Shown: piece after piece, positions 26,006-50,026 of the stretch
Layout: each line of letters opens with the position of its first letter
Numbering within the stretch: the first letter of the stretch is position 1
Assembly: GCF_003334305.1 (NCBI RefSeq)
Contig: NZ_QOWS01000010.1
Direction: 5' to 3' (one strand)
DNA length: 64,000 nucleotides
Origin: Escherichia coli
GTDB lineage: Bacteria > Pseudomonadota > Gammaproteobacteria > Enterobacterales > Enterobacteriaceae
Program-made: the position numbers and the translations under genes
The notes under the pieces: model-generated
The model's input: only the letters and a program-made list of their open reading frames with translations
The model's database searches: none
What the model was told of the DNA's origin: nothing

Positions 26006-26965
26006 ATGAAGCCGGAAAACAAACTACCTGTTCTGGACCTTATTTCTGCTGAAATGAAGACCGTTGTGAATACTCTTCAGCCGGATTTACCGTCCTGGCC
26101 CGCAACGGGAACGATTGCTGAGCAACGACAGTATTACACGCTTGAGCGCCGATTCTGGAATGCGGGCGCTCCAGAAATGGCAACCAGAGCTTACATGGTT
26201 CCAACAAAATATGGGCAGGTGGAAACACGTCTCTTTTGTCCGCAGCCAGATAGCCCGGCGACGCTATTTTATTTGCATGGAGGCGGTTTTATTCTCGGCA
26301 ATCTCGATACCCACGATCGCATCATGCGCCTGCTGGCAAGCTACAGCCAATGTACGGTGATTGGTATTGATTACCCCCTTTCACCTGAAGCGCGTTTTCT
26401 GCAAGCGATAGAGGAAATTGTGGCTGCTTGTTGTTATTTCCACCAGCAGGCGGAGGATTATCAAATCAATATGTCCCGCATTGGCTTTGCCGGTGATTCC
26501 GCAGGTGCCATGCTGGCGCTCGCCAGTGCGTTGTGGTTGCGTGATAAACAGATCGATTGCGGTAAAATTGCGGGTGTTTTGCTGTGGTATGGGCTTTACG
26601 GATTACGGGATTCCGTGACTCGTCGTCTGTTGGGCGGTGTCTGGGATGGCTTAACGCAACAGGATTTGCAGATGTATGAAGAGGCGTATTTAAGCAACGA
26701 CGCGGACCGCGAGTCACCGTATTACTGTCTGTTTAATAATGATCTCACTCGCGAAGTTCCGCCCTGTTTTATTGCCGGGGCGGAGTTCGATCCGCTGCTG
26801 GATGACAGCCGTCTGCTTTACCAGACGTTAGCGGCGCATCAGCAGCCCTGTGAGTTCAAACTCTACCCAGGTACGCTGCATGCCTTTTTGCATTATTCAC
26901 GAATGATGAAAACCGCCGACGAGGCTCTTCGCGACGGCGCTCAGTTCTTTACCGCTCAGCTTTAG
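26006..26965 (+). CDS. aes: Acetyl esterase (alpha/beta hydrolase, HSL family), 319 aa
   Basis: ORF track; HGGGF oxyanion motif, GDSAG nucleophile motif. Confidence 0.95.
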
Positions 26966-27924
26966 CGATACGCGGCAACAAGATTAGCCATCATTTCGAT
27001 ATGTTCCGGCGTGGCATTAAGCGCTGGAATATATTCATATTTTTTCCCGCCGGCACCGAGGAAGACCTCACGGTTTTGCTCGGCAATCTCTTCCAGCGTC
27101 TCCAGACAATCCGCAGCAAAGCCCGGGCACATCACCTGTATATGACCTACGCCTTTTTCTCCGAGCATTTTCAGCGTTTCGTCGGTATAAGGCATCAGCC
27201 AGGGTTCCCGGCCAAAGCGCGACTGAAAGGTCATCATCACTTTTTCCGGTGCCATCCCCAGTGCGGAAGCCAGTTCGCGAGTCGTTGTGCGGCAACGTTG
27301 CGGGTAATCATCGCCTTCATCTGCATAACGCTGGGGAATGCCATGATAAGAGAGCAGCAGCAGATCCGGTTCGCCATGTTTGGCAAAAGAAGCGCGTACG
27401 CTGTTCGCCAGTGCATTAATGTAATCGTGGTTATCGGCGTAATCACGAATAAACGATATCCCCGGAATGCTACGTTTGCGCGCCAGAATGCGTGCCAGTT
27501 CATCCCATACCGCACCGACCGTAGAACAGGAGAATTGCGGATAAAGCGGCAGCACCACAATATGATCTACATGCTCTGCCAGGAGTTCATCGACGGCGCT
27601 TTCCAGTGATGGCGAGCCGTAGCTCATGCCCAGCGCTACGGGCGTATCCGGTAAACGTTGTGCCAACGCCTGCTGTTGCTGGCGGCTGTAAACCATCAGC
27701 GGCGAGCCGTCTTCCATCCAGACCGAGGCGTACAGCTTCGCCACACGCGGCGAGCGCAGCGGCAAAATCACGCCGCGCAGCAACGGCCACCATAACAACC
27801 GTGAGGTATCAACCACGCGTCTGTCGCTTAAAAATTGTTTCAGATAGCGTTTTACCGCTTCAGGTGTGGGGGCATCGGGCGTACCCAGGTTTGCCAGCAG
27901 GATACCGGTTTTAGTCTGACGCAT
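26962..27924 (-). CDS. hemH: Ferrochelatase, 320 aa
   Basis: ORF track; recognised HemH sequence; 3' end overlaps aes 3' end by 4 nt. Confidence 0.96.
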
Positions 27925-28040
27925 TACCGCCTCTTATCGATTCAACTTGTTGATAATTGTAGCGGAAAAGTGAGGAAGAAGAACTAATTGCTGTGAGAGG
28001 TCAAATCAGAAAAAGGAATAGCGCAGATTGAGGTTTTTGT

Positions 28041-28066
28041 AAAAGGCCGAATGAATATCCGGCCTG
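28041..28066 (-). terminator. Probable adk intrinsic terminator
   Basis: Reverse strand AGGCCGG-atattcat-TCGGCCT followed by TTT; about 95 nt downstream of the adk stop. Confidence 0.5.
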
Positions 28067-28088
28067 AGATTGCTGATAAGTTTGCTTG

Positions 28089-28150
28089 TGCGGGCCTGTT
28101 CCCCTCACCCTAACCCTCTCCCCGAGGGGGCGAGGGGACTGTCCGTGCGC
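28089..28150. repeat. GC-rich imperfect palindromic intergenic element (BoxC-like)
   Basis: gcgggcctgttcccctcaccctaaccctctccccgagggggcgaggggactgtccgtgcgcgc; ccctctcccc / ggggcgaggg form a 10-bp inverted repeat with one mismatch; directly 3' of the adk stop. Confidence 0.5.
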
Positions 28151-28159
28151 GCTTTCGAA

Positions 28160-28876
<717 letters not shown>

Positions 28877-28952
28877 TCAAGAAAGGCACCTGAGGCTGAA
28901 ACGGTTAATGGCGAGATAATTTGCGGAAAGTGCAGATGATGAAAAGAAAAAT

Positions 28953-28978
28953 GCCGGATGACACAAAGGTCATCCGGC
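28953..28978 (-). terminator. Intrinsic terminator of htpG
   Basis: Reverse strand gccggatgac-ctttgt-gtcatccggc followed by ATTTTTCTTTTC. Confidence 0.8.
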
Positions 28979-28984
28979 ATGACA

Positions 28985-30859
28985 TCAGGAAACCAGCAGC
29001 TGGTTCATACGACGAATAAACAGGTTCGGATCTTCCAGCGTGCCGCGTTCTGCCAGCAGCGCCTGATCCAGCAGCAGTTCTACCCACTCGCTGAACTTCG
29101 CTTCATCTTCAGTATCTGCCGCACGTTTCACCAGTACGTGATCCGGGTTCAGTTCGAAGATGTATTTCACTTCTGGCACTTTCTGGCCCGCCGCAGCGAA
29201 CAGTTTCGCCATCTGAGTGCTCATTTCGTCCGCGTCGGTCGAAACGATCGCTGGCGTATCGGTCAGACGGTGAGTCAGACGGACATCTTTCACGCGCTCG
29301 CCGAGCAGGGCTTTCACACGGTCGATGAACGGAGTCAGTGCTTTCTCCGCTTCTTTCGCGCTCTCATCAACTTCGTCAGCCAGTTTTTCCAGCGACTCGT
29401 CAACTTTAGACACCGACTGGAACGGTTTACCGTCGAACTCAGTCAGATAGTTCATCATCCACTCATCGATGCGGTCGGAAAGCAGCAGAACTTCGATGCC
29501 TTTCTTACGCAGCAGTTCCAGGTGTGGGCTGCTCTTCGCTGCCGCATAGCTGTCTGCAGTGATGTAGTAGATTTTCTCCTGCCCTTCTTTCATGCGGGAA
29601 ACGTAGTCTTCCAGAGACACGGTCTGCGCAGAAGAATCGGTATAAGTAGAAGCAAAACGCAGCAGTTTGGCGATCGCTTCCTGGTTAGCGAAATCTTCCG
29701 CCGGACCTTCTTTCAGTACCAGGCCAAACTGTTGCCAGAAGGTCTGGTATTTTTCCGCGTCGTCTTTCGCCAGTTTTTCCAGCATTTGCAGCACACGCTT
29801 GGTCAGCGCATTGCGCAGGTTACGCGTTACCGTGCTGTCCTGGAGGATTTCACGGGAAACGTTCAGCGGCAGATCGCTGGAGTCAATCAGACCACGCACG
29901 AAGCGCAGATAGTTCGGCATGAACTGTTCTGCGTCGTCCATGATGAACACACGCTGGACGTACAGTTTCAGGCCGTGTTTATGATCACGGTTCCACATAT
30001 CCCACGGAGCCTGGGACGGGATGTACAGCAGGCTGGTGTACTCCTGCTTACCTTCAACGCGGTTGTGGCTCCAGGTCAGCGGATCATTAAAGTCGTGGGC
30101 GATGTGTTTGTAGAACTCTTTGTACTCTTCATCGGTGATTTCCGACTTGTTACGAGTCCACAGCGCCTGCGCTTTGTTGATTTTCTCCCAGGAGATAACG
30201 GTTTCGCCGTCTTTCTCTTCGCGTTTTTCGATCTCTACCGGCAGCGCGATATGGTCGGAGTATTTGCTGATGATGGAACGCACGCGCCAGTCATCGAGGA
30301 ACTCGTCTTCGCCTTCACGCAGATGCAGGGTGATTTCAGTACCACGATCTTCTTTGGTGATGTCGGCAACGGTATATTCACCTTCGCCAGCCGATTCCCA
30401 GAAGACGCCGTTTTCTGGTTTTTCGCCTGCCGCGCGAGTACGCACGGTCACTTTGTCGGCCACGATAAACGCAGAGTAGAAACCAACACCAAACTGACCG
30501 ATCAGCTGGCTGTCTTTCGCCTGGTCAGAACCCAGGGATTCGAGGAATGATTTGGTACCGGATTTAGCGATAGTCCCCAGATGGTCAATCACTTCGTCGC
30601 GGGTCATCCCCACGCCGTTATCGGAGATGGTCAGCGTGCGCTTGTCTTTATCGAAAGAGACACGAACGCGCAGTTCGCCATCACCTTCGTACAGGTCCGG
30701 GTTAGATAGCGCACGGAAACGCAGCTTGTCCGCCGCATCGGAGGCGTTAGAGATAAGCTCACGCAGGAAGATTTCTTTATTGGAATAGAGAGAATGGATC
30801 ATCAGGTGCAGAAGCTGTTTCACTTCTGACTGAAAACCACGAGTTTCTTGTCCTTTCAT
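28985..30859 (-). CDS. htpG: Hsp90-family molecular chaperone, 624 aa
   Basis: ORF track; GHKL ATPase N-domain (ELISNASDA); recognised HtpG sequence. Confidence 0.98.
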
Positions 30860-49606: not shown

Positions 49607-49996
49607 ATGCTGGTTTCTTGCGCAATGCGACTTCACTCGGGCGTTTTTCCAGATTATGCTGAAAAATTACCTCAGGAAGAAAAGATGGAAAAAGAAGATT
49701 CATTTCCCCAACGCGTCTGGCAAATCGTCGCCGCTATTCCCGAAGGCTATGTCACCACTTACGGTGATGTGGCGAAACTGGCGGGATCGCCCCGCGCCGC
49801 GCGCCAGGTGGGCGGTGTGTTAAAGCGTCTCCCTGAAGGCAGCACCTTACCCTGGCACCGGGTGGTTAATCGCCACGGCACAATTTCGCTAACCGGACCG
49901 GATTTACAGCGTCAGCGACAGGCATTACTGGCAGAAGGTGTGATGGTATCGGGAAGCGGGCAAATCGACTTGCAGCGTTATCGCTGGAACTACTAA
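49607..49996 (+). CDS. atl: Alkyltransferase-like protein (MGMT-fold DNA alkylation damage sensor), 129 aa
   Basis: Track ORF 49586..49996; start placed at MLVSCAMRLHSG (ATG 49607). Confidence 0.88.
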   Translation: MLVSCAMRLHSGVFPDYAEKLPQEEKMEKEDSFPQRVWQIVAAIPEGYVTTYGDVAKLAGSPRAARQVGGVLKRLPEGSTLPWHRVVNRHGTISLTGPDLQRQRQALLAEGVMVSGSGQIDLQRYRWNY

Positions 49997-50018
49997 CCCT
50001 CTCCGGGCGGAGAGGGTT
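49995..50018. terminator. Bidirectional terminator between convergent atl and ybaY
   Basis: Perfect inverted repeat aaccctctccg-g-cggagagggtt between the two stop codons. Confidence 0.7.
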
Positions 50019-50026
50019 AACGTCGC

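Follow-up and report, generated by a model that had tools for sequence, protein, structure and literature searches.

What is the short GC-rich palindrome that follows the adenylate kinase gene adk in Escherichia coli, and what, if anything, does it do there? The window, a stretch of 64,000 nucleotides of E. coli DNA, contains one such element: an earlier note had quoted it at 28089-28150, and its sequence is found at these coordinates. Judged by its letters, the palindrome is an ordinary and already catalogued copy of the repeat family known as BoxC, PIT or TMECO: it is real, and it is not new. Copy no. 6 of that family is, very probably, a passive passenger of the adk 3' UTR, neutral or selfish, with a possible part in local slippage. 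The following paragraphs give the evidence for both statements, together with the other explanations that can be proposed.

The segment concerned is E. coli htpG-adk-hemH-aes, in an orientation reversed relative to K-12. Its genes, and the part of the spacer next to hemH, are the following.

26006-26965, plus strand: aes (list of open reading frames).
26962-27924, minus strand: hemH coding sequence, ferrochelatase, with 176 nt between its start and the BoxC core upstream (open reading frame and RefSeq annotation).
27925-28001, minus strand: hemH-proximal part of the spacer, with the hemH promoter and 5' leader, outside the repeat (alignment of the spacer alleles and cross-genus conservation).
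28160-28804, minus strand: adk coding sequence, adenylate kinase, with BoxC in its 3' UTR (open reading frame; adk in the matching RefSeq records).
28985-30859, minus strand: htpG (list of open reading frames).

The adk stop codon occupies 28160-28162 and hemH starts at 27924. Over 341 bp that span the spacer, the sequence has 100% identity with K-12 MG1655 and with many other strains. The element had been described as too rich in GC for its AT-rich surroundings, and composition bears this out: the GC fraction is 0.70 in 28087-28157, against 0.40 in the remaining spacer and 0.53 in the entire window. At the other end of hemH, the convergent frames of aes (plus strand) and hemH (minus strand) share 4 bases at their 3' ends, at 26962-26965.

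The element itself can be divided into a core of three blocks, separated by two loops, and two flanks.

28087-28157, minus strand (the sense strand of adk): whole BoxC/PIT/TMECO unit, about 70 bp (conservation of the flanks, plus-strand fold, identity to K-12 copies).
28101-28136, minus strand: the 36-nt core, CCCTCGCCCCCTCGGGGAGAGGGTTAGGGTGAGGGG, a TMECO of type A with one mismatch (same letters as copy no. 6 of the published table).
28127-28136, minus strand: block 1, the pyrimidine strand, CCCTCGCCCC (read from the sequence).
28114-28123, minus strand: block 2, the purine strand, GGGGAGAGGG (Watson-Crick pairing with block 1, one A:G mismatch).
28111-28113, minus strand: TTA loop between blocks 2 and 3, which defines type A.
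28101-28110, minus strand: block 3, GGGTGAGGGG, the candidate third strand, which mirrors block 2 (triad geometry).

Read along the sense strand, the core is thus block 1 (CCCTCGCCCC), loop CTC, block 2 (GGGGAGAGGG), loop TTA and block 3 (GGGTGAGGGG); along the plus strand, it is CCCCTCACCC (28101-28110), TAA, CCCTCTCCCC (28114-28123), GAG and GGGGCGAGGG (28127-28136). The earlier note saw an imperfect palindrome with arms ccctctcccc and ggggcgaggg, and a direct reading confirms that these pair with exactly one mismatch. The pairing stands, but the two-arm design does not, since the core has three blocks: a C block, a G block and a mirror G block. The distal block, taken as 28100-28110, can also pair with 28128-28138, over 11 nt that are 91% complementary.

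On either side of the 36-nt core, the unit has flanks of about 21 nt (5', conserved) and about 14 nt (3'). Among 11 type-A copies of K-12, conservation reaches about 21 nt in the 5' direction (consensus ..GCACGGACGGTC) and about 5-14 nt in the 3' direction (GAACAG..GCAC). This conservation sets the limits of the unit at about 28087-28157, which agrees with the limits proposed earlier and is consistent with the published size of BoxC, 50-56 bp. The flanks pair with one another in the fold. As a single strand, the 76-nt unit has a folding energy of -34.7 kcal/mol on the minus strand (z = -2.5) and of -36.6 kcal/mol on the plus strand (z = -2.7), and the plus-strand fold pairs 28087-28149, nearly the interval first noted. 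RNA folding was a check suggested at the time; as adk-sense RNA, the 76-nt unit folds stably, with the value given for the minus strand. As G-rich DNA, a 48-nt segment that contains the core gives an ordinary hairpin of -13.7 kcal/mol (z = -2.9). Folding programs do not model triplexes, and all these energies are for ordinary hairpins. When block 3 is laid antiparallel on block 2, canonical purine-motif triads (G.G:C and T.A:T) occur at 9 of the 10 positions, and the remaining one falls over the A:G mismatch. The copy at adk is compatible with an intrastrand purine-motif triplex on the G-rich strand.

The family to which this design belongs has been described under several names. In Holder et al. 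2015 (NAR 43:10126, PMC4666352), TMECO is presented as the family "earlier described as BoxC" (Bergler 1992; Bachellier 1999) and later called PIT (Hoyne & Maher 2000). Its consensus in PMC4666352 is CCCTCNCCC-N3-6-GGGNGAGGG-N3-GGGNGAGGG[G/T/C/-], and a pattern match shows that the minus strand, read from 28136 to 28101, fits CCCTCNCCC-N3-6-GGGNGAGGG-N3-GGGNGAGGG. The correspondence goes further than the pattern: the reverse complement of 28101-28136 is identical, in 36 of 36 positions, to TMECO no. 6, type A mm (Table 1 of PMC4666352), which is located on the sense strand at NC_000913 497843-497878. Supplementary Table S2 of the same paper gives the arrangement "adk - 23 nt - TMECO 6 - 176 nt - hemH" in K-12, and the spacing in the window, 23 nt from adk to the core and 176 nt from the core to hemH, is the same. 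Since adk occupies 497175-497819 in NC_000913.3, and thus ends at 497819, the coordinates of the core map one-to-one onto K-12. The guess that the element was of BoxC type was therefore right, and the comparison with the published family that was to decide the matter ends in an exact match to a catalogued copy. The finding is already known, because this exact copy stands in the literature.

Eleven other TMECO loci of K-12 were also compared, including fabI (envM), the site of the first description of BoxC; this founding copy served as the BoxC reference, in place of the published 56-bp consensus. Against the ten other type-A copies of K-12, cores are 92-97% identical and 70-nt units 75-84% identical; against the founding copy, the values are 95% for the core and 78% for the 70-nt unit. 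The copy in the window is intergenic, between the adk stop at 28160 and the hemH start at 27924, and so are the eleven others, as is the rule in this family. RefSeq records, including NC_000913.3, carry no feature at BoxC, which is why the copy at adk keeps being "rediscovered". It can now be annotated as BoxC/PIT/TMECO.

The earlier note proposed a count of copies in the genome. A query of 71 bp (28085-28155) has matches in all 5426 complete E. coli genomes, at a median of 19 and a maximum of 35 places per genome, so that the element is a multi-copy repeat. One record of K-12 MG1655 has 21 places, and between 23 and 32 copies have been reported for K-12. The places total 96,054, of which 95,980 are chromosomal and 74 are on plasmids, in keeping with a family that has no ties to plasmids, phages or transposons. 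No mobile-element gene adjoins the copy between adk and hemH, which is the only one in the 64-kb window: each half of BoxC occurs once there, compared to 0 matches in 100 dinucleotide-preserving shuffles.

These counts bear on the suggestion that the element is a member of a family other than BoxC, namely REP/BIME, ERIC/IRU or RSA, or simply a GC-rich palindrome due to chance. Its short, palindromic and intergenic character is indeed common to such families. REP sequences, however, can be recognised by the signature of the standard REP primers, GCC(G/T)GATG.G(G/A)CG ... CG(C/T)CTTATC(C/A)(G/T)GCCTAC, and ERIC/IRU elements by the central inverted repeat signatures of the ERIC1R/ERIC2 primers, GTGAATCCCCAGGAGC ... 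TGACTGGGGTGAGCG. The REP signature GCCGGATG...CTTATCCGGCCTAC has no match in the spacer of the window, while the same pattern matches the adk-hemH spacers of Citrobacter Res13 and S. enterica diarizonae; likewise, GTGAATCCCCAGGAGC and TGACTGGGGTGAGCG have no match in the spacer of the window, and both match in a spacer labelled "Chryseobacterium sp. 18061" (locus L045). A search with Rfam covariance models over 26900-29100 (E up to 10) returned chance hits only, none reaching threshold; the best overlap, Antizyme_FSE, scores 19 bits for a gathering score of 40, with E = 0.87. Copy number and shuffle controls exclude a chance palindrome, and an assignment to another family is contradicted by the identity of the core to a BoxC/TMECO copy already catalogued. 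We thus give this explanation practically no credence.

A second palindrome, at 49995-50018, had been presented as a relative of the first. It exists: TAACCCTCTCCG-GG-CGGAGAGGGTTA has perfect 12-nt arms at 49994-50005 and 50008-50019, with folding energies of -19.7 and -21.7 kcal/mol for the two strands. The genes on its two sides, atl (ybaZ, MGMT family) and ybaY, converge, and it occupies the space between their stop codons, overlapping the TAA of atl. The relationship to BoxC, on the other hand, did not hold: the locus is single-copy, is conserved (5394 of 5426 E. coli genomes), and has a single 11-mer, GGAGAGGGTTA, in common with BoxC. By our own estimate, chance alone would give about 0.8 such 11-mer matches in 64 kb. 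In an O157:H7 strain, an extra C in one arm is accompanied by an extra G in the other, and the stem is preserved. A derivation of this palindrome from a collapsed pair of BoxC copies was considered and finds no support, on the same grounds: a single conserved copy and a change that preserves structure. We read it, from sequence features, as a locus-specific hairpin between convergent genes and not as a relative of BoxC. It resembles a bidirectional hairpin of the terminator type, with no U tract on either side.

We now return to adk and to the transcript that crosses the element. One more feature is needed.

28040-28065, minus strand: intrinsic terminator of adk, GGCCGGAU-AUUC-AUUCGGCC (28045-28064) followed by UUUU (28041-28044) (fold and Term-seq).

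This hairpin, folded on the minus strand over 28045-28065, has an energy of -13.2 kcal/mol (z = -4.3) and is followed by UUUUA. Adams et al. 2021 (PMC7815308, supplementary files 1 and 3) report a curated Term-seq 3' end at NC_000913.3 497939/497940, plus strand, in all three growth conditions; its context, ...CAGGCCGGATATTCATTCGGCCTTTTA, corresponds to 28040/28039 in the window. The terminator that had been proposed at 28041-28066 is thus real, and the palindrome does lie between the adk stop and the terminator hairpin, with the mapped end directly after the latter. The RNA ends 120 nt past the adk stop and 61 nt beyond BoxC, and the tables of curated 3' ends in PMC7815308 have none at 4978xx, where BoxC is. 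Because the 3' end follows the next hairpin, BoxC is no terminator but lies within the adk 3' UTR, which is 120 nt long in K-12-type strains, BoxC included. Adams et al. 2021 (PMC7815308) class the 3' end at 497939 as "orphan". It is best read as the adk terminator, and the label probably arose only because BoxC lengthens the adk 3' UTR. A little further downstream, supplementary file 2 of PMC7815308 lists a region of Rho termination at NC_000913.3 498060 (window about 27919), just within hemH, which hints at Rho-dependent attenuation at the 5' end of that gene.

A GC-rich hairpin 23 nt past a stop codon naturally suggests that the palindrome is itself the adk terminator, or part of one. However, it is followed by GAACAGGCCCGC, with no U tract, and Term-seq maps no end at BoxC itself; the one that it does map is 61 nt downstream, behind a canonical hairpin and UUUU. 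A promoter and terminator consensus scan over 27850-28250 called nothing, at BoxC or elsewhere; it also overlooked the real adk terminator, because the T run of the latter has only 4 T. In addition, PIT elements reportedly showed no terminator activity (Hoyne & Maher 2002). A terminator role for the palindrome is, on these data, extremely unlikely.

If the repeat has no part in ending the transcript, is it at least a fixed feature of the locus? Among E. coli genomes, the adk-hemH spacer has two alleles: a long one of 235 bp, found in K-12-type strains, and a short one of 131 bp without BoxC. Four short-allele strains, an O157:H7 strain, Nissle 1917, CT265 and 1218KP (loci L001-L004), were aligned with the window, which delimits the following feature.

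28002-28159, minus strand: part of the spacer specific to the long allele, 158 bp, with BoxC, linker and terminator (alignment with short-allele strains).

The two alleles are identical from hemH to 28001, the breakpoint is at 28001/28002, and beyond it 158 bp in one allele face an unrelated 54 bp in the other. The 54-bp segment holds a different hairpin, GCAGATCTGC-TTTCGG-GCAGGTCTGC, without a U tract. The unique 85-bp part of the long allele (28002-28086) is found once each in 2914 of 5426 genomes, and the short-allele segment once each in 2507 of them, so that the two alleles together cover 5421 genomes. The repeat is therefore present in the orthologous spacer in about 54% of E. coli genomes and is dispensable at this site, the 2507 genomes with the short allele being without it. 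The two observations that were to refute the BoxC reading, a single copy in the genome and absence from orthologous spacers, are not what is seen. The long allele is nearly invariant, with 2901 of the 2914 genomes at 99% identity or more to the window; the short one is more diverse, with 410 at 99% or more, 1629 at 95-99% and 468 at 90-95%. The hemH-proximal part, 27925-28001, is almost unchanged in both. A clean insertion of the repeat, with target-site duplication, can be ruled out as the origin of the difference, since the alleles differ by the replacement of 158 bp with 54 bp and not by the repeat alone. A repetitive nature of the rest of the long-specific part was likewise ruled out, as it is single-copy; so is the short-allele segment, which is not a repeat either.

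The uniformity of the long allele could reflect recent common descent, and selection is also compatible with it. One may propose that the two spacer alleles are an old polymorphism, maintained or repeatedly exchanged, in which adk 3' ends behave differently and BoxC contributes as an RNA structure. The polymorphism does reach past E. coli proper, with a degenerate long allele in the lineages E69 and E1V33 and a short one in Escherichia sp. MOD1-EC7003; we nevertheless regard the proposal as decidedly unlikely. Whatever the origin of the alleles, adk is a standard MLST gene, and the presence of two unrelated sequences next to it calls for care in primer design and in alignments that run past its stop codon.

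Orthologous spacers of other species give a wider view of the site. With a degenerate DNA pattern of the start of hemH, 38 loci were identified in species-representative genomes, 37 of them with adk upstream. In these 37 adk-hemH spacers, the strict three-block motif has 0 matches. Thirty of the 37 come from genera other than Escherichia, if one includes "Chryseobacterium sp. 18061", whose label is doubtful, and in these no BoxC-like sequence is found (blastn matches of 8-13 nt, E at least 1.2). Within Escherichia, E. coli E69 (L032) and Escherichia sp. E1V33 (L049) share the long allele, in which BoxC has a degenerate form with two blocks, detected by blastn only: both show the same 6-nt gap where blocks 2 and 3 meet, plus point changes, and a plain hairpin remains. 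The short allele is found in Escherichia sp. MOD1-EC7003 and E. coli SCPM-O-B-8794. In E. whittamii (L040), whose spacer is 700 bp long, the adk terminator hairpin directly follows the adk stop, without BoxC. That spacer also holds an open reading frame of 167 amino acids (L040 4590-5093, minus strand), with an N-terminus resembling a lipoprotein signal (MRYLCLLPTGILLLSSLLTGC...), which is absent from the other loci examined.

Other repeats are found at the equivalent place in other lineages: REP-type sequences in Salmonella enterica subsp. diarizonae and several Citrobacter (L024, L033, L038, L050), and an ERIC/IRU-type element, with both ERIC signatures, in L045. Three enterobacterial repeat families thus occupy the same site after adk in different lineages. 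Locus L045 (CACSKA010000001.1) has the enterobacterial adk-hemH arrangement, and its last 57 Adk residues are 89% identical to those of E. coli; probably the contig carries the wrong organism label or comes from a contaminated assembly. The 77 bp next to hemH are conserved across genera, and still recognisable in the spacers of Salmonella and Citrobacter. The adk-proximal half of the spacer may be a permissive site, filled by different repeats in different lineages. Since the spacer is variable also in genera that lack BoxC, its variability does not need BoxC.

This last point matters for an adaptive explanation, on which Holder et al. speculate: the repeat would be an "evolvability" element, whose triplex, formed during replication, is selected for generating local variation. 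TMECO loci do vary more between strains than control intergenic sites, in a comparison of 56 strains (PMC4666352), and the adk-hemH spacer shows both the replacement of one allele by another and the 6-nt deletion within the G blocks. Yet the triplex was looked for in vivo and none was detected, according to the literature, variation at this site is also found in genera where REP or ERIC sequences stand in place of BoxC, and selecting variability in the 3' UTR of a housekeeping gene has no evident benefit. We consider selection of this kind very unlikely.

The main alternative to a passive passenger is a role of the repeat in RNA. As a stem-loop in the adk 3' UTR, BoxC might guard the mRNA against 3'-to-5' exonucleases or adjust its rate of decay, as has been shown for some REP sequences. 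It is transcribed within the 120-nt 3' UTR, its RNA fold is stable (the -34.7 kcal/mol and z = -2.5 given above), and the E69 and E1V33 variants keep the hairpin though the third block is gone. Against this, the hairpin of the downstream terminator already makes the 3' end, BoxC being internal and not terminal; 46% of E. coli genomes do without BoxC at the site; and the copies of the family are found in both orientations with respect to genes, upstream more often than downstream, with no link to a class of genes (PMC4666352). An RNA-stabilising role at adk is, in our analysis, unlikely.

The account that we prefer is thus that of a passive repeat, with a potential for triplex formation that is known in vitro. 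In oligonucleotides of type A mm, the isolated G-rich strand folds back twice into an intrastrand purine-motif triplex, as observed by CD and NMR (Holder et al. 2015, PMC4666352); according to the literature, the duplex form gives no triplex, and DMS footprinting in vivo was negative. PIT elements reportedly showed neither promoter nor terminator activity, and no effect on replication in vivo. In the literature searched, no functional work on TMECO follows Holder et al. 2015.

The published Term-seq, read with the sequence, shows that transcripts cross BoxC and stop at the following hairpin, 120 nt beyond the adk stop; the repeat is thus carried passively in the 3' UTR, and as RNA it would form a stable stem-loop and nothing more. 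The element would be a dispersed repeat, neutral or selfish, that serves no dedicated function between adk and hemH; here "no function" is an argument from absence. The G-rich strand is the non-template strand of adk and presumably, from the K-12 map, the lagging-strand template (direction of replication at 497 kb). When single-stranded, it could fold transiently and give rise to slippage and small rearrangements. Such transient folding and slippage would fit the marked structural polymorphism of the spacer. What connects BoxC with local instability is a correlation, however, both in the literature and at this locus, and the adk-hemH copy gives no special handle on the spread of the family or on the triplex in cells.

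How does this repeat compare with known systems? Like REP/PU sequences (BIMEs), it belongs to the short palindromes, rich in GC and repeated between enterobacterial genes, that often lie in 3' UTRs. The consensus is different, and REP sequences have two arms whereas BoxC has three blocks. REP sequences have gyrase, IHF, Pol I and RAYT transposases as partners, and their stabilising effect on mRNA has been shown; we know of no such protein partners, and of no mRNA-stabilising effect, for BoxC.

The likeness to H-DNA and other mirror-repeat triplex sequences, which are associated with polymerase pausing and instability, lies in the homopurine mirror repeat GGGGAGAGGG TTA GGGTGAGGGG and its G.G:C triads. 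The difference lies in the strands involved: the BoxC triplex is proposed to form within a single strand, from a hairpin and a third block, and not from a duplex and a strand. It also lies in the setting, the BoxC triplex having been obtained from oligonucleotides in vitro, with a negative footprint in vivo.

The closest comparison is with the BoxC family itself. The adk-hemH copy has the core, the three blocks, the TTA of the second loop, the flanks and the intergenic site of the family, whose members number about 20 dispersed chromosomal copies per E. coli genome, and no family-level difference sets it apart. What is particular to this locus is its position: the copy is placed inside the adk 3' UTR, upstream of a mapped terminator, and it is tied to one of two alleles of the spacer.
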